Part shown: positions 1 through 7,631 of the stretch, one piece after another
How positions within the stretch are numbered: position 1 is the first letter of the stretch
Layout of the letters: each line of letters begins with the position of its first letter
IMG/VR virus record: IMGVR_UViG_2526164602_000017
Span: 1-7,631 of that record
Direction: 5' to 3' (one strand)
DNA length: 7,631 nt
DNA from: a virus
Lineage: Duplodnaviria > Heunggongvirae > Uroviricota > Caudoviricetes
Notes under the pieces: generated by a model
What the model saw: the letters and a program-made list of their open reading frames with translations, nothing else
Databases searched by the model: none
Told to the model about the DNA's origin: nothing
Translations under genes and position numbers: made by a program

Positions 1-25
1 GGTTCAAATCCAGCAAGGGCCACCA
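1..25 (+). tRNA. 3' fragment of a tRNA (5' part lies outside the window); probably tRNA-Ile2-like (AUA-decoding)
   Basis: T-loop TTCAAAT (3-9), T-stem 3' strand CCAGC (10-14), acceptor 3' strand AAGGGCC (15-21), discriminator A22, encoded CCA 23-25. The 3' end resembles E. coli tRNA-Ile2 as I recall it, and the ileZ-argN-argO arrangement of Stx phages fits. The anticodon is not in the window, so identity is inferred. Confidence 0.55.
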
Positions 26-32
26 TCACATA

Positions 33-109
33 CCGCCATTAGCTCATCGGGATAGAACGCCAGCCTTCGAAGCTGGTTTCGCGGGGTTCGAGTCTCCGAT
101 GGCGGTCCA
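33..109 (+). tRNA. tRNA-Arg, anticodon UCG (reads CGA/CGG)
   Basis: Hand-folded cloverleaf: acceptor CCGCCAT (33-39) / ATGGCGG (99-105); D-stem GCTC (42-45) / GAAC (55-58, one mismatch); anticodon stem CCAGC (60-64) / GCTGG (72-76); loop CTTCGAA with anticodon TCG at 67-69; T-stem CGGGG (82-86) / CTCCG (94-98, one G-U); T-loop TTCGAGT; discriminator T106; encoded CCA 107-109. Confidence 0.85.
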
Positions 110-122
110 TTATCGGTATTCT

Positions 123-199
123 GCGTTTTTAGCTCAGCCGGACAGAGCAATTGCCTTCTAAGCAATCGGTCACTGGTTCGAACCCAGTACAACGCACCA
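123..199 (+). tRNA. tRNA-Arg, anticodon UCU (reads AGA)
   Basis: Hand-folded cloverleaf: acceptor GCGTTTT (123-129) / ACAACGC (189-195, one mismatch); D-stem GCTC (132-135) / GAGC (145-148); anticodon stem ATTGC (150-154) / GCAAT (162-166); loop CTTCTAA with anticodon TCT at 157-159; T-stem ACTGG (172-176) / CCAGT (184-188); T-loop TTCGAAC; discriminator A196; encoded CCA 197-199. Confidence 0.85.
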
Positions 200-339
200 C
201 ACTTATTTTCCCTCGCTCGCTTTTGCGGACCTTTTTTGTATCCGCACCACGCCCGGCGCATACCAACCACAGAGCCTTTCGGGGGGAGCTTATGGAGTGG
301 TCAGTGTGACTTTCTCTGTGGGCAGATCGCTCCCGGGCG

Positions 340-801
340 TTGGCTCACCCACCCAAAGGAACGTCACGATGTTTGGTATTTTTGGTAAAAAAAGCCCGCA
401 GAGCGGCAACGGAAATTAAAAAGTTTGAAAAACGCGATCTGGCACAGGTGGTGATTAACGCCGCATACCTGGTGGCCTGTGCAGATGGTGAATGTGAGGC
501 ATCCGAGAAAGCGAAGATCGAACAGGTACTGCGTAATCAGCCAGCGCTGTCCGCGTTTACGTCAGAAATTAATGCGATTAGCGCAACCATTATCGGTCAG
601 CTGGATACGAACTTTAAAACTGGTCGTCGTGCGGCGTTACGTGAGATCGAGGATGTGAAACACGATACGCGTGAAGCGGAAGATGTGCTGGATGTGGCGG
701 TGGCCATTGCGGAGGCAGACGGCGAAATTGAGCCGGAAGAGCGCAAGGTGCTGGAAGAGATTGCCGGTGTTCTGGGTCTTCGTCTGGAGAATTACCTGTG
801 A
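340..801 (+). CDS. TerB-like (tellurite-resistance TerB domain family) protein; start codon uncertain
   Basis: 153-codon ORF with two ADGE-containing motifs (AAYLVACADGE... and VAVAIAEADGEIEPEE...) that I recognise as TerB-like. The track start is TTG 340 with no SD. The only SD+ATG (AGGA 357-360, ATG 369-371) is in another frame that stops after 16 codons; an A7 run at 387-393 separates the two frames. Confidence 0.6.
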   Translation: MAHPPKGTSRCLVFLVKKARRAATEIKKFEKRDLAQVVINAAYLVACADGECEASEKAKIEQVLRNQPALSAFTSEINAISATIIGQLDTNFKTGRRAALREIEDVKHDTREAEDVLDVAVAIAEADGEIEPEERKVLEEIAGVLGLRLENYL

Positions 802-1052
802 CGGTAAAACTGCGTCTGGCTGTGGCTGCACTCCTGCTGTTTCTGGTGGTGATGGTGGATTTCACCAGCAGAATCATGTCGGTGCTGGCGGATGGGGGGC
901 TGGTCTGCGGCATTGTGGTATTGCTGTGGCCGGTGATAAAAAGAACAGCCTGCATAATGCTTGATTTTTTTGTTTACTGTTTATTAAAAATACTACTGCA
1001 TGGCGAATCCCCCTGTGCGGAGGGGCAATCAGCAACCAGGTATATGGGATAA
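798..1052 (+). CDS. small hydrophobic membrane protein, unknown function
   Basis: GTG 798 overlaps the TerB stop (GTGA at 798-801), with GGAGA at 785-789 upstream, which suggests translational coupling. Product has hydrophobic stretches (AVAALLLFLVVMV, LVCGIVVLLWPVI). The AT-rich 3' part (about 955-1010) may be non-coding, so the true end is uncertain. Confidence 0.4.
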   Translation: MTVKLRLAVAALLLFLVVMVDFTSRIMSVLADGGLVCGIVVLLWPVIKRTACIMLDFFVYCLLKILLHGESPCAEGQSATRYMG

Positions 1053-1165
1053 TCGCGGATTCAGGTGCTGGTACTGAATTCACCGGGAGGCACCCGGCAC
1101 CATGCTTTGCCACAAAAGTGTTATTTCTGTTTTTCTCAAACTATCATCGTTATCCCTTTATTTCC

Positions 1166-1192
1166 GGCTGCGCATGGCGCGGCCTTTTTTTT
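1166..1192 (+). terminator. Rho-independent terminator-like hairpin followed by T8
   Basis: Stem GCTGCGC (1167-1173) / GCGCGGC (1177-1183) with one G-U, plus G1166-C1184; loop ATG; then TTTTTTTT at 1185-1192. It lies between the TerB/membrane-ORF pair and the esterase gene. Confidence 0.55.
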
Positions 1193-1278
1193 ACGACCAG
1201 CCACTGGCAGATGGTCATCCTGTGATTTGATTCCGGTTCCGGCTTTTTAACTCTGTTCCTGTACACGGGAGAAATTCG

Positions 1279-3216
1279 ATGTCGATTAAACATTATGATG
1301 TTGTCAGGGCGGCGTCGCCGTCAGATCTTGCGGAAAAGCTGACACACAAACTGAAAGAGGGCTGGCAGCCGTTTGGTAGTCCTGTGGCCATAACCCCTTA
1401 TACCCTGATGCAGGCGATTGCCGCGGAGGGGGATGTGACCACGCCAGTGGTTGTGCCCGGCACGGGGGATGGTGGCTATCCGGGAGTGGTCACCACGGAG
1501 CCAGATTATTACTACGTTATTCCACTGGCCGGGCAGTCGAACGGCATGGCTTACGGTGAGGGGCTTCCTCTGCCGCAGACATATGACCGTCCTGACCCGC
1601 GTATAAAGCAACTGGCTCGTCGCAGCACAGTGACGCCGGATGGCGCTCCCTGTAAATATAACGACATTATTCCGGCAGACCACTGTCTGCATGATGTACA
1701 GGACATGAGCCGTCTTAACCATCCGAAAGCTGACCTGTCGAAAGGTCAGTACGGAACCGTGGGGCAGGGGCTGCATATTGCCAAAAAGCTGCTGCCGTTT
1801 ATACCGGCGAATGCGGGTATTCTTCTGGTTCCGTGCTGCCGTGGTGGTTCAGCTTTCACCACCGGGGCAGATGGAACATACAGTGACGTGACCGGTGCCT
1901 CAGAGAGTTCTACCCGCTGGGGTGTGGGCAGGCCGCTGTATAAGGATCTCATCGGTCGTACAAAAGCCGCGCTGGCAAAGAACCCGAAAAATGTGCTGCT
2001 TGCCGTGGTGTGGATGCAGGGGGAATTTGACTTTGACGGAACGCCAGCAAATCACACAGCCCGTTTTACAGAAGTAGTGGAACAATATCGTACGGACCTT
2101 GCAGATATGGTGGGACAGTGCGCTGGTGGTTCTGCTGACGGTGTTCCCTGGATATGTGGAGACACAACTTATTTCTGGAAGCAGAAGAGCGAATCCACTT
2201 ACCAGACGGTGTACGGCAGTTACAAAAACAAAACGGAAAAGAATATTCACTTTGTGCCGTTCATGACCGATGAGAACGGAGCAAATGTCCCGACGAACAA
2301 ACCGGAAGAAGACCCGGATATTCCGGCATCAGGATATTACGGTGCGGCCTCCCGGACGTCGGCAAACTGGACGTCAGCAGACCGTGCGAGCCATTTCAGC
2401 TCATGGGCACGCAGGGGGATTATTTCTGACCGTCTTGCCTCAGCGATTCTTCTCCATGCAGGACGGACGGCTGAACTGGTGGGTGGGGAACAGGTTGTGA
2501 TGCCGCCGGATGAGAAGCCGTCACCGGACACACCATCAACACCGTCAACGGACGGGAAATCAGTGACAACGCTGCTTTATTACCGTGCAACAGAGTCAGG
2601 TGGTTTACTGAATCCGCAGGGATGGGGAGCTGAAGGAGGGCGTGCATTGGTAGTTGATGATGCAGGTGCTGCAGGAGGTAAGGCGCTGAGGTGGACCAAA
2701 CAGACAGGAAGTTCCTCGTGGTTTATGCAGCATGATGCCGGTAATGGCGCAGACCTGCTGGAGAAGGGCGGGCTTATCAGTTGTCGTTTTAAAGTTGATG
2801 GCACACTGACAGCTAATCAGTACGCACTGGCGCTGTACTGGCCGGTTTCTTCACTGCCTCAGGGCGTCACACTGGAAGGTAATGCCGGTCATAACCTGCT
2901 GGCGTCGTTTTACGTACAGAGCGATGCCACAGACCTTAATGTGATGTACCACAAGGGAAATGCTGGTCAGAACACGAAGCTGGGGTCATTCGGCGCATTT
3001 GATAACGAATGGCATACGCTGGGCTTCCGTTTTGCCGGTAACAACAGTATTGAGGTGACGCCGGTCATTGATGGTAAGGACGGGACGCCGTTCATGCTGT
3101 CACAGTCACCGGTCGGCACGTTTACGGCAGACAAATTGCGCGTGACCGATATCACTAGCGGTGCGACATATCCGGTGCTGATTGAAAGTATAACAGTGGA
3201 AGTGAATAACCCGTAA
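1279..3216 (+). CDS. nanS-p: prophage sialate (9-O-acetyl-Neu5Ac) O-acetylesterase, NanS-p-like (SASA/SGNH hydrolase with N-terminal DUF1737-like region)
   Basis: 645-aa ORF with SD GGGAG 8 nt upstream of ATG 1279. GQSN catalytic-serine motif (PLAGQSNGMAYGEG) as in SASA/SGNH esterases. N-terminus MSIKHYDVVRAASPSDLAEKL resembles the conserved N-terminal domain of Stx-phage NanS-p proteins. Size and position (after the tRNA/stx slot, before S) match those proteins. Confidence 0.8.
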   Translation: MSIKHYDVVRAASPSDLAEKLTHKLKEGWQPFGSPVAITPYTLMQAIAAEGDVTTPVVVPGTGDGGYPGVVTTEPDYYYVIPLAGQSNGMAYGEGLPLPQTYDRPDPRIKQLARRSTVTPDGAPCKYNDIIPADHCLHDVQDMSRLNHPKADLSKGQYGTVGQGLHIAKKLLPFIPANAGILLVPCCRGGSAFTTGADGTYSDVTGASESSTRWGVGRPLYKDLIGRTKAALAKNPKNVLLAVVWMQGEFDFDGTPANHTARFTEVVEQYRTDLADMVGQCAGGSADGVPWICGDTTYFWKQKSESTYQTVYGSYKNKTEKNIHFVPFMTDENGANVPTNKPEEDPDIPASGYYGAASRTSANWTSADRASHFSSWARRGIISDRLASAILLHAGRTAELVGGEQVVMPPDEKPSPDTPSTPSTDGKSVTTLLYYRATESGGLLNPQGWGAEGGRALVVDDAGAAGGKALRWTKQTGSSSWFMQHDAGNGADLLEKGGLISCRFKVDGTLTANQYALALYWPVSSLPQGVTLEGNAGHNLLASFYVQSDATDLNVMYHKGNAGQNTKLGSFGAFDNEWHTLGFRFAGNNSIEVTPVIDGKDGTPFMLSQSPVGTFTADKLRVTDITSGATYPVLIESITVEVNNP

Positions 3217-3363
3217 GCAGGAAAAAAAGGCCGCCGGGGCAGGGAAAACAAGGAGCCAGAACCGGCGGCAAATGTCGTTATATCCAAAGCAAAACATGCA
3301 GGACACTTTTTTAACCAACAGGTATTAACGATGTCAACACCATATCAATAACCGGGAGGGATA

Positions 3364-3546
3364 ATGAGATTTGTACAGCTTATTTTATTGTATTTCTGCA
3401 CGGTGGTGTGCACGTTATATCTGGTAAGTGGCGGGTATAAGGTTATCCGGAACTATATACGCAAAAAGATTGATGCCGCGGCGGCGGAAAAAATCAGCGC
3501 CAGCCAGTCAGCCGGAACAAAACCCGAAGAGCCTCTCATTTCGTAG
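3364..3546 (+). CDS. small hypothetical membrane protein
   Basis: 60-aa ORF with GGGAGGG at 3354-3360 just upstream of ATG 3364 (short spacer). N-terminal hydrophobic helix (FVQLILLYFCTVVCTLYLV) followed by a basic then Ala-rich tail. No family recognised. Confidence 0.35.
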   Translation: MRFVQLILLYFCTVVCTLYLVSGGYKVIRNYIRKKIDAAAAEKISASQSAGTKPEEPLIS

Positions 3547-3583
3547 CAACTTTCTTAACAACACCTTTCAACGAGAAAATCCC

Positions 3584-3853
3584 ATGTCAGAAATAAAATC
3601 TCTGGTCACTGCTGAAGCAGTGAAGGACGTCCTGCGCTCTGAAGAAGTCAGAAGCGCACTGAAACAGCAACTCCGCCAGAATCTTGAGGCGCGTCTTGAT
3701 GCTGAAGTGGATGCCATTCTGGATGAGCTGCTGGGGGGACCGGCTGCTCCTGAGCCTGAAGACGGCGCGGGTGACAGTGCTGTTTCAGATGGCGTTGTGT
3801 CTCAGCCTGACGGTAGCAGTGAGCCTCAGCCTGGCGGCGAAATGATGATGTAA
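3584..3853 (+). CDS. hypothetical acidic protein
   Basis: 89-aa ORF from ATG 3584; the longer track ORF from 3428 would overlap the preceding ORF and lacks an SD. Helical charged N-terminal half and Asp/Glu/Pro/Gly/Ser-rich C-terminal half ending MMM. SD is weak (GAGA). Confidence 0.4.
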   Translation: MSEIKSLVTAEAVKDVLRSEEVRSALKQQLRQNLEARLDAEVDAILDELLGGPAAPEPEDGAGDSAVSDGVVSQPDGSSEPQPGGEMMM

Positions 3854-3928
3854 CCATACGCAGGGGCTGTCGGTGTGAGCTGATGCCCCTCCTGTTGTTG
3901 TGAGCTTCCGGATTGCGGGAGACGGGGT

Positions 3929-4144
3929 ATGTACCAGATGGAAAAAATCACAACGGGTGTGTCATACACCACGTCAGCGGTGGGGACGGGATACTGGTTA
4001 CTGCAGCTGCTGGACAAAGTCTCTCCGTCCCAGTGGGTGGCGATAGGTGTGCTGGGGAGTCTGCTGTTTGGCCTGCTGACGTATCTTACTAACCTGTATT
4101 TCAAAATCAGAGAGGACCGTCGTAAGGCGGCGCGGGGAGAGTAG
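3929..4144 (+). CDS. S: class II holin, phage-21 S-type pinholin
   Basis: 71 aa, near-identical in layout and many residues to phage 21 S as I recall it (..[55 protein letters not shown]). Two TM segments. Dual-start motif MYQM (ATG 3929 and ATG 3938). SD GGGAGACGGGG upstream. Confidence 0.85.
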
Positions 4145-4147
4145 ACG

Positions 4148-4939
4148 ATGAATAAACAATACGAACTGGTTGTTAAAGGGATAAATATTTACCCGGATAA
4201 GATTACTGTTACTGTGGCGCTGGAAACTGGTGGGTATACGTCACTGTTGTTGCCAAATGTGGTGATTGATCTTGATCGTGTTGAAGGTGCCCCGCTGGAG
4301 TTTTACGAAGCTGAGGCGAAAAAGAAGGCGAAGCAGTTTTTCATGGATATTGCTGCCGGGTTATGTGAAGGGAACGAACCGTTGCCGGAAAAGCGCCTCT
4401 GTTCAGAAGAGCGGTATACCATACAAATTAACAATGCATATAACACGATACAGTCAGAAAAAGATGATATCGAATCACGCATTGAAAAACTGGAGAACAG
4501 CGTCGTTGAACTGAATAAAAAACTGTCGGTGCAGATCCCTTCCGAAGGTGAAAAAAAACGCCGTGATGAGCAGTTCGCGGCGTTTTACGATTATTGCCGG
4601 AAAGTGATGAGCAGAAATCTCGCAGAGTGTTTCCGTATTCAAAAAAACAGAGAGCGCTCTGCAAATAGTGAGATTCTGGATAATTTTTTAAAGGGGACGC
4701 ATCTCGCCAGTGATTGTTTCATTGCTCATTCTTTTGGTGGCTTTCATGAGGCCATCAAACATGATGTTGAGAGAAGTCCAGGTATCCTCTGTTCCATTCC
4801 CGTAAGCATCGAAATAGACACAAATACGATAACCGGTGAACTCGTTACCGCCGGAGTCGGTATATTCCGTCATGAGGGGAACGATGCCAAAGGTTCCTTT
4901 ACAAAAATCGGGCCGTTCTTTCTGAAGGTAGAGCGATAG
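4148..4939 (+). CDS. hypothetical protein, unknown function (cargo ORF A)
   Basis: 263-codon ORF starting 3 nt after the S stop, with GGGAGA 7 nt upstream of ATG 4148. AT-rich; by hand count 6 ATA, 3 AGA, 2 CGG and 1 CGA codons. Predicted coiled-coil-like stretch IESRIEKLENSVVELNKKL. The last 84 codons overlap the convergent ORF on the other strand. No family recognised. Confidence 0.5.
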   Translation: MNKQYELVVKGINIYPDKITVTVALETGGYTSLLLPNVVIDLDRVEGAPLEFYEAEAKKKAKQFFMDIAAGLCEGNEPLPEKRLCSEERYTIQINNAYNTIQSEKDDIESRIEKLENSVVELNKKLSVQIPSEGEKKRRDEQFAAFYDYCRKVMSRNLAECFRIQKNRERSANSEILDNFLKGTHLASDCFIAHSFGGFHEAIKHDVERSPGILCSIPVSIEIDTNTITGELVTAGVGIFRHEGNDAKGSFTKIGPFFLKVER

Positions 4940-5320
4940 TTTGTTAAGTACCCATCCGACAGCTCGCTCATTTTGGTTTATTTTCGTATCGCGAAACAAA
5001 AATTCGAAGCGGCCAGATGACGCATGGGTGCAACCAAATACCGGGGCGTATTCATCAACCTTTGGTGTTCCTGAAAACATGCAGTCCGTGCTCTCGAATG
5101 CAGATGAATTGCTGTTGATCCACTTAACAAAAGAAAAAAAGGTCTGAATCGCTTGTCTGTCTGAATATTCAACAAAATCCTCAAGGTGTGTCTCGATCAG
5201 TTCCGGGTGTTTACGAAAGTCATAATATTGACCGGGACGATATTTATGAGTGGTTGTTTTATCCCATGGTTGTGCTCTGCGTCCCTGTAAACGGAGGTCT
5301 GCCGCTGGATAGATAAGCAT
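4688..5320 (-). CDS. hypothetical protein, unknown function (cargo ORF B)
   Basis: Minus-strand ORF with a canonical SD: AGGAG (complement of 5328-5332), a 7-nt spacer, then ATG (complement of 5318-5320). This gives 210 aa beginning MLIYPAADLRLQ. The track's upstream extension to 5389 has no start signal. AT-rich. No family recognised. Confidence 0.55.
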   Translation of the reverse strand: MLIYPAADLRLQGRRAQPWDKTTTHKYRPGQYYDFRKHPELIETHLEDFVEYSDRQAIQTFFSFVKWINSNSSAFESTDCMFSGTPKVDEYAPVFGCTHASSGRFEFLFRDTKINQNERAVGWVLNKLSLYLQKERPDFCKGTFGIVPLMTEYTDSGGNEFTGYRICVYFDAYGNGTEDTWTSLNIMFDGLMKATKRMSNETITGEMRPL

Positions 5321-5375
5321 AAGTAATCTCCTGGTGGAATGTAATCCACGATCATCCGGGGAAATTAAGAACCCG

Positions 5376-5396
5376 CCAGTGCCCACCACTGGTGGG
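5376..5396. promoter_or_regulatory. compound inverted repeat upstream of cargo ORF B (candidate operator or RNA hairpin)
   Basis: Two overlapping perfect palindromes: CCAGTG (5376-5381) / CACTGG (5387-5392), and CCCACC (5382-5387) / GGTGGG (5391-5396) with spacer ACT. Lies in the 130-bp gap between the start of minus-strand ORF B (5320) and the start of R (5451). Confidence 0.3.
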
Positions 5397-5450
5397 GTGA
5401 AGGCTTAACATATCCAGGGATTCGGAACCGATAAATCCTGATAAATATCC

Positions 5451-5984
5451 ATGAACACCAAAATCAAATACGGCCTGTCGGCTGCCGTTCTGGCGCTGAT
5501 TGCCGCAGGGGCGCCTGCGCCTGATATTCTCGACCAGTTTCTGGATGAAAAAGAAGGTAACCACACCACGGCATACCGTGATGGTGCGGGTATCTGGACC
5601 ATTTGTCGTGGTGCCACCAGGGTGGATGGCAAACCTGTCGTTCCGGGCATGAAGTTGTCGAAGGGAAAATGCGACCGGGTTAACGCCATTGAGCGTGATA
5701 AGGCGCTGGCGTGGGTGGAGAAAAACATCAGAGTGCCGCTGACCGAACCCCAGAAAGCGGGGATCGCGTCATTCTGTCCGTACAACATTGGTCCCGGTAA
5801 GTGTTTCCCGTCGACGTTTTATAAACGAATTAATGCAGGTGATCGCAGGGGAGCGTGTGAGGCGATTCGCTGGTGGATTAAGGACGGTGGGCGTGATTGC
5901 CGCACACGTTCAAATAACTGCTACGGACAGGTTATTCGTCGTGACCAGGAAAGCGCATTAGCTTGTTGGGGGATAGATCAGTGA
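5451..5984 (+). CDS. R: SAR endolysin (T4-lysozyme-like muramidase, GH24 family)
   Basis: 177 aa. N-terminal weakly hydrophobic Gly/Ala-rich segment ([18 protein letters not shown]) typical of a signal-anchor-release domain. Catalytic E-x8-D-x5-T spacing in [16 protein letters not shown], as in T4 lysozyme E11/D20/T26. Paired with a pinholin as in phage 21. Confidence 0.85.
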
Positions 5985-6448
5985 GAAGAGTAACCGCGAT
6001 TATTTACGCTCTGGTTATCTGCATCATCGTCTGTCTGTTATGGGCTGTTAATCATTACCGCGATAACGCCATAACCTACAAAGAGCAGCGCGATAAAAAA
6101 GTCAGTGAGCTGGAGCTGGCAAATGCAACCATTACTGATATGCAGCAGCGCCAGCGTGATGTTGCTGCACTTGATGCCAGATACTCGAGGGAATTAGCTG
6201 ATGCGAGAGCTGAAAATGAAACTCTGCGTGCTGATGTTGCCGCTGGTCGTAAGCGCCTGCGGATCAACGCCACCTGCCACGGTACCGTGCGTGAAGCCAC
6301 CGGCACCTCCGGCGTGGATAATGCAACCGGCCCCCGACTGGCAGACACCGCTGAACGGGATTATTTCATCCTCAGAGAACGGTTGATGATGATGCAGAAG
6401 CAGCTGGAAGGGGCGCAGGAATATATCCGCACTCAGTGTATTAACTAG
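5981..6448 (+). CDS. Rz: i-spanin Rz
   Basis: Very similar to lambda Rz as I recall it (..[33 protein letters not shown]... [23 protein letters not shown]...). N-terminal TM helix plus periplasmic coiled coil. I place the start at GTG 5981, which overlaps the endolysin stop (GTGA); the track's TTG 5963 is the alternative. Confidence 0.85.
6201..6386 (+). CDS. Rz1: o-spanin Rz1 (outer-membrane lipoprotein), embedded in the +1 frame of Rz
   Basis: 61-aa ORF wholly inside Rz. Lipobox LVVSAC. Pro-rich mature part ([27 protein letters not shown]) closely matches lambda Rz1 as I recall it. Confidence 0.8.
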
Positions 6449-6471
6449 TATTTTTGTTATCCGGAGAATGC

Positions 6472-6696
6472 ATGAAGAAATTACTGGTAACCGTAAAGCC
6501 TTTTCAGGGAACAATTCCGTTCCGTATTTTGCAGCGTGGTCGTGTTCTTGTTGAAGGTTCGTTCAGTGGTAAATGTACGCAATTACACTCCCGGACCTTT
6601 CAGGTGAATGCCACGAATGAAGAGCTAACCGTTGAGTGTACGATGAATGCCGCTAAATGCCGCATGGTATCCGCTGCATTACAGCCAGTGTGTTGA
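6472..6696 (+). CDS. small hypothetical protein (74 aa, 4 Cys)
   Basis: ATG 6472 preceded by GGAGA at 6463-6467 (short 4-nt spacer); the track start TTG 6454 is less likely. No family recognised. Lies between the spanins and cos. Confidence 0.4.
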   Translation: MKKLLVTVKPFQGTIPFRILQRGRVLVEGSFSGKCTQLHSRTFQVNATNEELTVECTMNAAKCRMVSAALQPVC

Positions 6697-6903
6697 GCGA
6701 CCTTATTATTCATGCGCGGTATTGTCGCCGTATTCCCGTATTAACAGAGACCGCAGCCCGACAGGGAGACTCCTCTGCGCGAGTGTGCGGGGATAATCAA
6801 AAACGATACACACCGGGGTTTACCGCGTTAACGGAGCGCGGCGTTGTCCCCTCATAGTCGCTGGTCCGGTGCGATGCTGGAAGAAACCGGACTACATTAC
6901 AAA

Positions 6904-7000
6904 TGATAACCATTATCATTTTCGGGTCCTCCTGGTGTGGTGGGCCTGAACACGGGGCGGGCGGCGCGGAAAAAGGCGCATTTTTTGATTTTTATGGCAC
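6904..7000. other. candidate cohesive-end site (cosQ-cosN-cosB-like) of the prophage
   Basis: GATAACCATTATCATTTTCGGGTCCT (6904-6929) resembles the lambda cosQ region GATAATCATTATCACTTTACGGGTCCT. ACG+GGGCGGGCGGCG (6952-6966) resembles lambda ACG+GGGCGGCGACCT (cosN 12-nt end). It is followed by an A/T-rich stretch about 150 bp upstream of the small-terminase start, as in lambda. Lambda sequence is recalled from memory. Confidence 0.5.
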
Positions 7001-7113
7001 CATCACCACCAGTGTAAGTTGTTGATATATAGAAAAATAAAAATTTTTAGTGTCGAATCTGGTTGTTTTTTGTTCATCACTGGTGTGTGTTTACATAATT
7101 TTCAGGGGGAGTT

Positions 7114-7590
7114 ATGGATCGTGAATTAAAAAATCTGCATCTGAATATTTCCCAACTGGCCGCATTATCCGGTGCTCATCGACAGACTGTTGCGGCTCGG
7201 GTAAAAAACATAAGCCCAGCCGGTGGTCATGAGAGCAATCTCAAACTGTACCGACTGACAGATATCCTTGCCGAGCTGATGAAAGCTCCTCTGCCTGTAG
7301 ATAACGAGGAAATGGATCCTCATGCGCGTAAAGCATGGTACCAGTCAGAACGTGACCGACTGAAATTTGAGCAGGAAACTGGTCAGCTTGTGCCAGTCAG
7401 TGATGTCAGGCGGTCCTTTTCTGTCGTGGTGAAAGCGATAGTTCAGGTACTGGAAACCTGGCCTGACCGGCTGGAGAGGGACAGGGGGTGGACCGCATCA
7501 CAACTGAATGAAGTACAGATTGTGGTTGATGAGATCCGCGACACACTGGAAAAGGCAGTCATTGACTGTTGTGATGAGGCCGATATGTGA
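7114..7590 (+). CDS. terminase small subunit, Nu1-like
   Basis: 158 aa. N-terminal HTH-like segment (LNISQLAALSGAHRQTVAARV), comparable to lambda Nu1 KKQLADIFGASIRTIQNW. Located directly after the cos-like region and after the lysis cassette, as in lambda. G-rich SD at 7104-7111. Confidence 0.6.
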   Translation: MDRELKNLHLNISQLAALSGAHRQTVAARVKNISPAGGHESNLKLYRLTDILAELMKAPLPVDNEEMDPHARKAWYQSERDRLKFEQETGQLVPVSDVRRSFSVVVKAIVQVLETWPDRLERDRGWTASQLNEVQIVVDEIRDTLEKAVIDCCDEADM

Positions 7591-7631
7591 ATCAGGTGAA
7601 CGAGAGCCATAGCCGCGCATCCGATATCTGG

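Follow-up and report, generated by a model that had tools for sequence, protein, structure and literature searches.

We analyzed a 7,631-nucleotide stretch of Caudoviricetes DNA (IMG/VR record IMGVR_UViG_2526164602_000017, positions 1 to 7,631; hereafter the window), which the list of its open reading frames (ORFs) and a Pfam scan place in the late region of a lambdoid prophage of the Shiga toxin (Stx) phage type. Our subject is the interval at 4145-5450 between the lysis genes S and R. S (3929-4144, plus strand) encodes a class II, phage-21-type holin (Pfam Phage_holin_2_1, E=1e-32) and is annotated by PGAP as 'class II holin family protein' in a 99.9% identical copy. R (5451-5984, plus strand) encodes the endolysin (Pfam Phage_lysozyme, E=1.1e-23). 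The first 24 residues of its translation are hydrophobic and rich in Gly and Ala; we take this N-terminus to be of the signal-arrest-release type, a reading that rests on established knowledge of phage-21 R. Two ORFs lie between S and R: ORF A (4148-4939, plus strand, 263 amino acids (aa)) and ORF B (4688-5320, minus strand, 210 aa). An earlier note on this DNA had placed both, with the S stop at 4144 and the R start at 5451, and all of these coordinates were confirmed. It described the interval as a single AT-rich insert. The comparisons below leave us highly confident of a different architecture, taken as a whole: the interval is a composite of two unrelated things, a resident late gene and an inserted cassette in inverted orientation that carries ORF B.

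ORF A belongs to a known family over most of its length. Residues 1-96 match Pfam DUF1327 with 116.3 bits (cut-off 25; E=7.5e-34; positions 1-90 of the 93 in the profile), and the match to phrog_2091 spans residues 1-168 (profile positions 1-182 of 183). The gene starts 4 nt past the S stop, a layout shared with PhiR12_1 and with RefSeq records. Protein alignment with intact relatives (169 aa in PhiR12_1, 185 aa in the prophage of Escherichia coli O157:H7 SS17) showed that homology ends at about residue 165, and the DNA similarity to other prophages, as determined with blastn, ends at 4597 (PhiR12_1) or at 4641-4644 (SS17 and many others). When held against full-length members of the family (phrog_2091, 183 aa), ORF A is thus not intact, its C-terminus being swapped for 98 read-through residues. 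PGAP annotates only 4148-4396, as a DUF1327 pseudogene ('incomplete; missing C-terminus'). The resident part of ORF A spans 4148-4644 (plus strand) and comprises the N-domain (residues 1-96) followed by a shared middle of coiled-coil type, but no longer its own C-terminus; the tail (residues ~166-263, 4645-4939, plus strand) reads through into the inserted cassette. On sequence grounds, ORF A is a 3'-damaged chimera, that is, a resident late gene with an overwritten end. We rejected the possibility of a novel 263-aa protein because ORF A consists of a DUF1327 and phrog_2091 body with an antisense read-through tail.

The distance from 4148 to 4688 is 540 nt (3x180), which puts the codons of the tail exactly in antisense register to those of ORF B. 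From 4688 on, ORF A is antisense codon-for-codon to codons 128-210 of ORF B, and its stop is the complement of CTA codon 128. The 252-nt overlap between the two ORFs therefore arises from ORF A reading through the antisense of ORF B. An open stretch of 82 codons is unremarkable in this register, since only the sense codons TTA, CTA and TCA can close it. In the Salmonella homolog of ORF B, the same antisense frame is closed at codons 161, 191 and 194. Apart from copies of the same cassette, the tail had no match among the relatives of ORF A, and these alignments make it most likely that the tail is not under selection for coding. We also note that the antisense frame is stop-free from codon 128 or 129 to the end (window 4688-4936) in four of five ORF B homologs compared; this is probably a chance product of codon usage, which would explain the open tail of ORF A. 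The suggestion that the two ORFs form a joint module was not borne out, the tail of ORF A being antisense read-through of ORF B.

A natural variant bears on the relation between the two genes. In this variant, the 354 nt that code for the DUF1327 N-domain (window 4153-4506) are swapped for 48 nt and ORF B is 100% intact, which shows that the maintenance of ORF B does not depend on ORF A.

The resident gene is a usual component of this region. DNA corresponding to the first 293 nt of ORF A (the DUF1327 N-domain of the YdfR family) is present in 3162 of the 5426 complete E. coli genomes. The earlier note had assumed that S and R are normally adjacent; this is not so in this phage group, where the records inspected have a DUF1327/YdfR gene between holin and lysozyme, and about 0.5 kb of the 1.3 kb that had been taken for one insert is this usual late gene. 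The ydfR gene of the E. coli K-12 Qin prophage presumably holds the same position. YdfR provides the one experimental lead for the family: its first 72 residues bind the catalytic half of RNase E, and RNA is co-purified with the protein (PMC13232886). It has the same DUF1327 domain as ORF A (residues 1-96), and both are genes of prophage lysis regions. YdfR has 103 aa, whereas ORF A adds the coiled-coil middle, common to phrog_2091 and phrog_1085 proteins, and the foreign 98-residue tail.

The low guanine-plus-cytosine (GC) content of the interval had been read as the signature of an insertion. The hand counts behind this claim are exact (33.3, 46.7, 36.7 and 36.7% inside the interval versus 68.3% at 1441-1500). 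Over its whole length the interval has a GC content of 44.5%, compared with 50.9% for the window and 54% for each of S and R, and it ranks 24th lowest among 6326 sliding segments of 1306 nt, the minimum being at 4142. This AT-richness is modest, and it does not separate the two components: the GC content is as low in the resident DUF1327 part (43.5%) as in the inserted cassette (45.0%), which makes base composition no marker of the insertion boundaries.

Alignment with related prophages set the boundaries of the insertion near 4640 and 5447. On the left, homology to the DUF1327 family stops at 4641-4644. On the right, the cassette-free SS17 prophage matches only from 5445, and the match to a hidden Markov model (HMM) of the upstream module, described below, ends at the same position. 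The blastn boundaries were taken against PhiR12_1, SS17 and RM9873; window 4598-5374 stands in place of 303 bp in PhiR12_1 and is absent from SS17. The junction is also polymorphic, with the cassette present in 133 of the 5426 genomes compared with thousands that have S and R. We therefore delimit an antisense moron cassette of ~0.8 kb (4640-5447, minus strand) that contains, in order of transcription, an upstream module, a 5' hairpin, a leader, a Shine-Dalgarno sequence, ORF B and a terminator. The proposal of a horizontally acquired, antisense, self-contained accessory gene between S and R is supported for ORF B.

ORF B is a real gene. Its mechanical ORF reaches an upstream GTG at 5389, which would give a protein of 233 aa, and we rejected this start because all homologs begin at an ML(I/V) methionine behind a Shine-Dalgarno sequence. 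All 27 viral-contig homologs with a traceable start have an ATG, the ML(I/V) beginning and an AAGGA-type Shine-Dalgarno sequence. A word-indexed search retrieved homologs of 209-220 aa from Salmonella enterica (64-65% identity), Yersinia (52-53%) and a metagenome (53%), and the close homologs align without internal gaps and share the start methionine. Pairwise ratios of nonsynonymous to synonymous substitution rates (dN/dS) against the Salmonella, Yersinia and metagenome homologs are 0.09-0.19, with synonymous sites near saturation.

To our two ORFs the earlier note could assign no protein family. For ORF A this was overturned by the homology searches (DUF1327, phrog_2091), while ORF B does fall outside every described family. 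An exhaustive HMMER search recovered 229 representatives (at 50% identity) with E<=1e-3, of which 129 had E<=1e-10, and nearly all of them are 200-220 aa long. The 89 clusters found in a profile search are all named hypothetical, and only one has a precomputed Pfam domain (a short DUF2934). Likewise, a Pfam scan of 60 family members gave no match, and one of longer members and fusions gave only a short DUF2934 tail in two. The hosts include Acidobacteria, Thermoanaerobaculia, Planctomycetota, Xanthobacteraceae and Pseudomonas aeruginosa, as well as many metagenomes. Across 82 sequences, L46, E47, D48, D79 and R104 are invariant, and R15, P18, F35, P39, I42, F49, F61, N69, E76, C80, G103, R110, N115, L132, G163, F170 and G174 are near-invariant. 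These positions include a conserved polar cluster in which E47, D48, D79 and R104 are invariant and R15, E76, C80, R110 and N115 near-invariant. A cysteine-protease-like pair of C80 and H99 was considered and dropped, H99 being unconserved in the wider family.

Structure prediction describes ORF B as a soluble alpha/beta protein. AlphaFold2 with seven sequences gave a mean predicted local distance difference test (pLDDT) of 72 and a floppy N-terminus; with 82 sequences, the pLDDT rose to 93.5 with a predicted template modelling score of 0.90, and the N-terminal 38 residues were packed on the domain. The confident model had no convincing fold match, and a comparison of ORF B with sequence profiles of the PDB matched nothing. 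The predicted fold is thus confident but unplaced.

The signals around ORF B fit its orientation. A terminator-like hairpin (4662-4647) followed by a T7 run (4646-4640) lies on the minus strand 25 nt past the ORF B stop, found in a consensus scan as GCAGAGCGCTCTCTGT + TTTTTTGAAT. The scan alone is weak, since it found 2 sites versus 1.7 expected; the position and strand of this putative terminator fit, and hairpin-plus-T runs also follow the stops of the Salmonella homologs (a consensus-level match). DUF1327-family similarity resumes right at its end. Read from the sequence, no T run follows the hairpin on the plus strand, so late transcription should pass it. At the other end of the gene, a Shine-Dalgarno AGGAG (5328-5332, minus strand, read from the sequence) lies 7 nt before the ATG, and the homologs have AAGGA or AGGAG 6-8 nt upstream of their starts. 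Farther upstream, directly after a TCA(G/C)CCC box, there is a GC-rich leader hairpin (5372-5396, minus strand) with a 10-bp stem and a 5-nt loop, for which RNAfold gave -16.3 kcal/mol (z=-3.4). Of 16 distinct upstream sequences, 15 form a hairpin at this position, with stem sequences of three unrelated classes. We judged this conservation by folding each sequence separately, since a gapless covariation test is uninformative where the loops differ in length. In two Salmonella loci, an exchange of T-A to C-G preserves a pair of the hairpin. The insert matched no family in an Rfam scan of the window.

Aligning the 5' flanks of ORF B homologs from different contexts revealed a common upstream module of ~130 nt. 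On the cargo strand, the general order of elements is as follows. A terminator of the hairpin-T-run type, seen here as its complement, directly precedes the next late gene. Next to it is a 15-bp palindrome, ACTG(A/T)T(C/T)-N3-(A/T)T(A/G)TCAGG, then GGATGTTGCT, 15-16 nt and TA(T/A)GGT or TATGTT, then TCAGCCC and a 7-10-bp hairpin immediately behind it, then the GGGATGGCTGA(A/T)TACCTC box, an AAGGA Shine-Dalgarno sequence and the ATG. A profile HMM made from 40 distinct modules of other loci, with no E. coli S-R copies among them, had a single match in the window (5445-5369, minus strand, E=1.2e-11). There the module (5369-5445, minus strand) consists of the right half of the palindrome, TATCAGG (5443-5437), followed by TTATCG (5434-5429), 16 nt, TATGTT (5412-5407), a TCACCCC box and the hairpin. 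Since the module gives way directly to the R start codon, its palindrome lacks the left half, in agreement with the cassette-free SS17 prophage matching only from 5445.

The TTGnnn/TAnGGT-like pair is part of the module common to at least 40 loci and is a putative promoter, to which we assign activity by inference from its sequence. The core of the palindrome, TATCAGGATGTTG, differs by one mismatch from what we take to be the consensus of integration host factor, WATCAANNNNTTR, and the palindrome may be a protein-binding site. In a by-eye comparison with consensus sequences, readings of the palindrome or promoter as LexA, FNR, PhoP or sigma-54 sites were rejected because their spacings do not fit.

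Other parts of the module are described here for completeness. The GGATGGCTGA box is part of its conserved leader. A ATGGCTGA... box behind AGAGGG opens a mini-ORF of 3-11 codons (for instance MAD or MAEYLT followed by a stop), the peptide of which is unconserved; it is possibly a translational control element. In Yersinia the mini-ORF is in frame and leads to the annotated 220-aa form of the ORF B homolog, and in the window (5355-5340) it has no stop and runs on as a 52-aa out-of-frame ORF (5355-5197). On the late strand of several other loci, just upstream of the module and immediately before the gpJ or gpL start, there is a GC hairpin with a T7 run (e.g. AGCCACC-N4-GGTGGCTTTTTTT). With this late-strand terminator, the cassette is bracketed by terminators facing both ways, and only antiterminated late transcription should pass.

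The module is not tied to ORF B. An IMG/VR pattern scan filtered for the palindrome returned 35 loci, in which at least 18 unrelated ORFs (56-211 aa) follow the module. In the tail-operon loci it lies directly against the gpL or gpJ start and faces away from that gene, and its orientation is always antisense to the late genes; three further loci have lysis genes (R or Rz) at some distance on the contig. The other cargos include phrog_1771, 36400, 6806, 25136 and 23209, a DUF1883 protein and a retropepsin-like protease, the functions of which are uncharacterised, and one cargo has a weak, sub-threshold likeness to the anti-adaptor IraP. In PhiR12_1, the S-R slot itself (1705-2076) has the same module and hairpin with a different minus-strand cargo, an 86-aa member of phrog_2572, which shows that the slot exchanges cargo. 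(The depositor label of this protein is DUF1823; Pfam did not match it.) Because the module is shared with other cargos, the unit at ~4640-5447 in the window is one of a family of cassettes with a common promoter-leader and exchangeable cargo.

In E. coli, the cassette with ORF B occurs at 200 places in its 133 carrier genomes, all at >=99% identity and across serotypes, including O26:H11, O111:H8, O145:H28, O103:H2, some O157:H7, O91:H21 and O178:H19. The exact ORF B protein is on at least 1000 contigs in public data. RefSeq/PGAP leaves ORF B unannotated in the four records that we examined closely, and under most of the matches listed there is no feature; annotated instead are an antisense 161-aa protein (WP_001457151.1) or a DUF1327 pseudogene. 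In one copy, whose ORF B has lost 1 bp, PGAP calls a further antisense ORF (WP_106916150.1).

The enterobacterial homologs are prophage genes that are always solitary and always opposite to the late operon. Among 28 IMG/VR loci, the homolog lies antisense between I and J in 21 and between K and I in 4; the I-J placement is also found in Yersinia, in one ENA contig and in one Logan contig. In S. enterica subsp. diarizonae it lies between Q and the holin, and in a JGI contig it is in an accessory region beside Fic/Phd and a repressor; the cassette thus moves among junctions and among phages. In none of the 37 loci inspected, E. coli S-R copies excluded, does it lie between holin and endolysin; no direct scan for DUF1327 was run on them. 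In Salmonella, the homolog is intact next to sodC in a decayed prophage remnant that has lost almost all phage genes. In this remnant (5300-9400 of the locus), the only intact ORFs are a gpM fragment, sodC and the ORF B homolog (with a GTG start), surrounded by ~4 kb of non-coding or degraded DNA and an insertion-sequence fragment. We considered sodC as another cargo and rejected it, the module being absent upstream of it. In the Yersinia prophages, the tail-tip operon holds several accessory insertions, one of them an immI-like block (Arc, Bro-N and KilA-N/ANT antirepressors) between K and I, beside the ORF B cassette.

Outside Enterobacteria, the neighbors of ORF B homologs include integrases, SIR2, GmrSD_C, ParB_N and NikA-like genes. 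One distant homolog is in a conjugative element with RadC, PIN, primase and a GTPase-centred conflict system, and others are in a Tn7/Mu-type element, in an integrase-primase element and beside an MNT nucleotidyltransferase and an SMC-like ATPase.

From these results we propose how the interval arose and how it may work. A DUF1327/YdfR-family late gene, common in E. coli lambdoid prophages, was resident between holin and endolysin, and the ~0.8-kb cassette (4640-5447) inserted in opposite orientation and removed the 3' end of this gene, so that ORF A now runs on through the cassette antisense. The cassette would be a complete minus-strand transcription unit made of the module, the 5' stem-loop, the leader, the strong Shine-Dalgarno sequence, ORF B and the one-directional terminator. 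If transcription starts a few bases before TCAGCCC, the hairpin would form a 5'-terminal stem-loop on the ORF B mRNA and, by analogy, could protect it. Q-modified polymerase would have to cross the cassette to reach R (or J, L), and late expression would be unaffected. Expression of the cassette would be independent of Q-driven late transcription, with ORF B thus being synthesized in the lysogen; its orientation and signals are compatible with such independence, as the earlier note had suggested. By analogy with lambda bor, we consider expression from the lysogen reasonably probable. Loci antisense to prophage lytic genes are characteristic accessory loci with a lysogen-expressed pattern (PMC7067206).

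In this proposal, ORF B would be a cytoplasmic protein taking part, as an enzyme or by specific binding, in conflict among phages or between host and phage. It would exclude superinfecting phages or mediate abortive defence against them, to the gain of both lysogen and prophage. A role in conflict is suggested by the persistence of the gene in a dead prophage, by its neighborhoods in other phyla, by the enzyme-like polar cluster and by precedents such as Tab (see below). The defence-type neighborhoods of the distant homologs comprise SIR2 and GmrSD_C, the GTPase conflict system with PIN and RadC, Fic/Phd, and MNT with the SMC-like ATPase. We regard a defence or exclusion function as possible, on the unlikely side; the defence or toxin role that the earlier note put forward gained no support from PADLOC models and stays conjectural. 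The explanation as a whole, a composite interval with a lysogen-expressed conflict cassette, is the best we have, and we hold it tentatively, at a little short of an even chance. More doubtful is its extension, in which the module would mark an unrecognised class of exchangeable antisense cassettes that dock immediately upstream of L, J and R in enterobacterial lambdoid phages and carry undescribed conflict proteins under a common, probably regulated promoter-leader, ORF B being a single-protein anti-phage enzyme with a fold outside the PDB.

Several observations weigh against this explanation. Models of Pfam, PHROG, NCBIfam and PADLOC-DB v2.0.0 did not match ORF B, and in PADLOC-DB v2.0.0 neither ORF B nor ORF A had a match at E<=1. 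A sigma-70 consensus scan did not find a promoter in the module region, and the promoter-like pair is weak, matching at 7 of 12 positions in the window and having a spacer of 15 nt in most modules. Most of the other module cargos have 56-105 aa, a size typical of inhibitors and counter-defence proteins rather than of defence enzymes. One ORF B homolog lies among ordinary metabolic and chromosomal genes. Finally, some distant homologs are beside primase, RadC, ParB and NikA-like genes of conjugative elements, where anti-defence genes cluster too.

Some of these points favor the best placed of the alternatives, in which ORF B is a counter-defence or host-takeover protein that would act for the benefit of the phage, expressed right after DNA entry or on induction from a promoter that the host recognises, and neutralising host immunity in the manner of anti-restriction and anti-CRISPR cassettes. 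The module precedes many unrelated small cargos (56-105 aa) at fixed positions, which resembles the architecture of anti-CRISPR loci, some distant homologs lie beside primase, RadC, PIN and NikA-like, ParB_N genes in transferable elements, and defence models do not match ORF B. We nevertheless consider this alternative unlikely, because the gene is intact in the decayed Salmonella remnant where the phage functions are gone, and because 210 aa with an enzyme-like polar cluster is unlike most small stoichiometric inhibitors. Its antisense orientation in late operons is moreover the classic layout of lysogen-expressed genes (PMC7067206).

Next comes the possibility that ORF B is a lysogenic-conversion factor for host physiology or virulence, such as a regulator binder, a stress or fitness factor or, at the extreme, an effector of a type III secretion system (T3SS). 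Its carriers are prophages of Shiga-toxin-producing E. coli, Salmonella (next to sodC) and Yersinia, the shallow first model had a disordered N-terminus, and one other module cargo is the weakly, sub-threshold IraP-like protein. This alternative is improbable given that the family reaches Acidobacteria, Thermoanaerobaculia, Planctomycetota, Xanthobacteraceae and P. aeruginosa. The effector version, which the E. coli, Salmonella and Yersinia hosts had prompted, was rejected: a host distribution restricted to T3SS carriers was not found, since non-pathogen phyla carry homologs, and the N-terminus, unlike a secretion signal, shows high conservation and a confidently predicted fold once the alignment is deep. 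The carriers also include O91:H21 and O178:H19 strains, which we take to be serotypes negative for the locus of enterocyte effacement, and an effector role is therefore very unlikely.

A further alternative is that the product is partly or wholly RNA, a minus-strand transcript antisense to late mRNA (the 3' region of ORF A, or the I-J or M-L junction) that would block the late transcripts of superinfecting relatives. The cassette is always antisense within an essential late operon and has a structured, conserved 5' leader, and antisense RNA from within late genes is known to confer superinfection immunity (PMC7067206). However, purifying selection acts strongly on ORF B as a protein, and Rfam families do not match in the region. 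The cargo sequences also differ completely among cassettes, so that the antisense target would be the cargo's own complement and no shared phage gene. This makes an RNA product quite improbable. The weakest alternative, that the ORFs form a two-gene system or that the 263-aa ORF A is the real gene and ORF B its shadow, draws on the length and plausible ribosome-binding sites of both, on DFAST-type annotations that call the 263-aa ORF and omit ORF B and on the 161-aa derivative annotated by PGAP (WP_001457151.1), and it is extremely unlikely in view of the end of ORF A homology at about residue 165 with the rest in exact antisense register of ORF B, the 37 inspected loci without a homolog in the holin-endolysin slot, the variant that deletes the DUF1327 N-domain with ORF B intact, and the stops in the antisense frame of the Salmonella homolog.

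The remainder of the window agrees with its assignment to a Stx-type late region. Rz (5963-6448) comes after R and is followed by a DUF1441 gene, and a 61-aa ORF out of frame inside Rz (6201-6386, plus strand), with a lipoprotein-like signal (LVVSAC), is the expected, ordinary Rz1 spanin partner. Upstream of S are a large SASA/DUF6645 esterase of the nanS-p type (1279-3216) and, between this esterase and S, DUF1378 and DUF826 genes. The beginning of the window holds two tRNAs (33-106 and 123-196), a TerB-domain ORF (340-801) and the small RNA STnc100 (972-1138, 94 bits). The TerB-domain ORF, flanked by the tRNAs and STnc100, sits at the position of stxAB in Stx phages (tRNAs to nanS-p) and marks a further cargo slot in this late region. 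Positions 3900-5600 are 99.9% identical to prophages of E. coli O145:H28, O157:H7 and O103:H2 and 99.5% identical to Stx1a-converting phages. The whole 7.6-kb window was found in one piece in no complete E. coli genome, and it is thus a mosaic.

These results have several consequences. In the RefSeq records inspected, a conserved gene of many Shiga-toxin-producing E. coli was missed by annotation, and an antisense shadow ORF or a pseudogene was called instead. With 229 representatives, no Pfam or PHROG model and no structural relative, the ORF B family is a clean target for function discovery, and the shared module provides a sequence handle for dozens of uncharacterised prophage cargos and for tests of their co-regulation. 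If the cargos are defence or counter-defence proteins, lambdoid late operons would hold a hotspot system comparable to those of P2/P4 or to anti-CRISPR loci, and the interest of the module would rise if they prove to be a coherent set of conflict genes. If they are not conflict factors, the annotation is still corrected, and the puzzling overlapping ORF pair in the lysis cassettes of Stx phages is explained.

In the literature we covered on DUF1327, ydfR and tail-operon morons, which excludes most subscription journals, neither ORF B nor the shared antisense module is described. Compared with known systems, the cassette is a bor-style moron in architecture, ORF A is a damaged member of the DUF1327/YdfR family, and ORF B belongs to no described family or solved fold. 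The moron concept of Hendrix and colleagues, with lambda bor as an example, refers to an accessory gene with its own signals among the late genes that is expressed from the prophage. Like bor, the ORF B cassette is a single gene with its own signals that runs against late transcription, is patchily present at a junction, deviates in base composition and would be expressed from the prophage. Unlike bor, a small lipoprotein, ORF B is predicted to be a soluble 210-aa alpha/beta protein, and the two have no relationship in sequence or fold. The cassette also has a portable upstream module of ~130 nt common to many cargos, which to our knowledge has not been described for bor or lom.

The module family also resembles loci in which the position is fixed and the cargo variable, such as the anti-CRISPR loci of Mu-like Pseudomonas phages and the defence hotspots of P2 and P4. 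They share a conserved position and control DNA with diverse, mostly small and uncharacterised cargos. The module family differs in having an antisense promoter-leader that abuts the start of the next late gene, in lacking a linked aca-like helix-turn-helix regulator and in its enterobacterial lambdoid hosts.

Two further known loci bear comparison. Tab, the tail assembly blocker of Pseudomonas phage JBD26, is a late-operon moron that the prophage expresses constitutively and that protects lysogens against other phages (PMC10884400). Like the ORF B cassette, it is a moron inside the late operon of a temperate phage and is unrelated to known families (PMC10884400), and it provides a functional model for the cargos in tail operons. 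Tab has 83 aa, lies between the terminase genes and has a partner, anti-Tab (PMC10884400), whereas ORF B has 210 aa, is antisense and solitary, and is unrelated to Tab in sequence. STnc6030 of the Salmonella prophage BTP1 is an antisense RNA to late structural genes that is active in the lysogen and confers superinfection immunity (PMC7067206). As with the cassette, it is an independent unit antisense to prophage late genes (PMC7067206); STnc6030 is non-coding, whereas the cassette encodes a protein under purifying selection.

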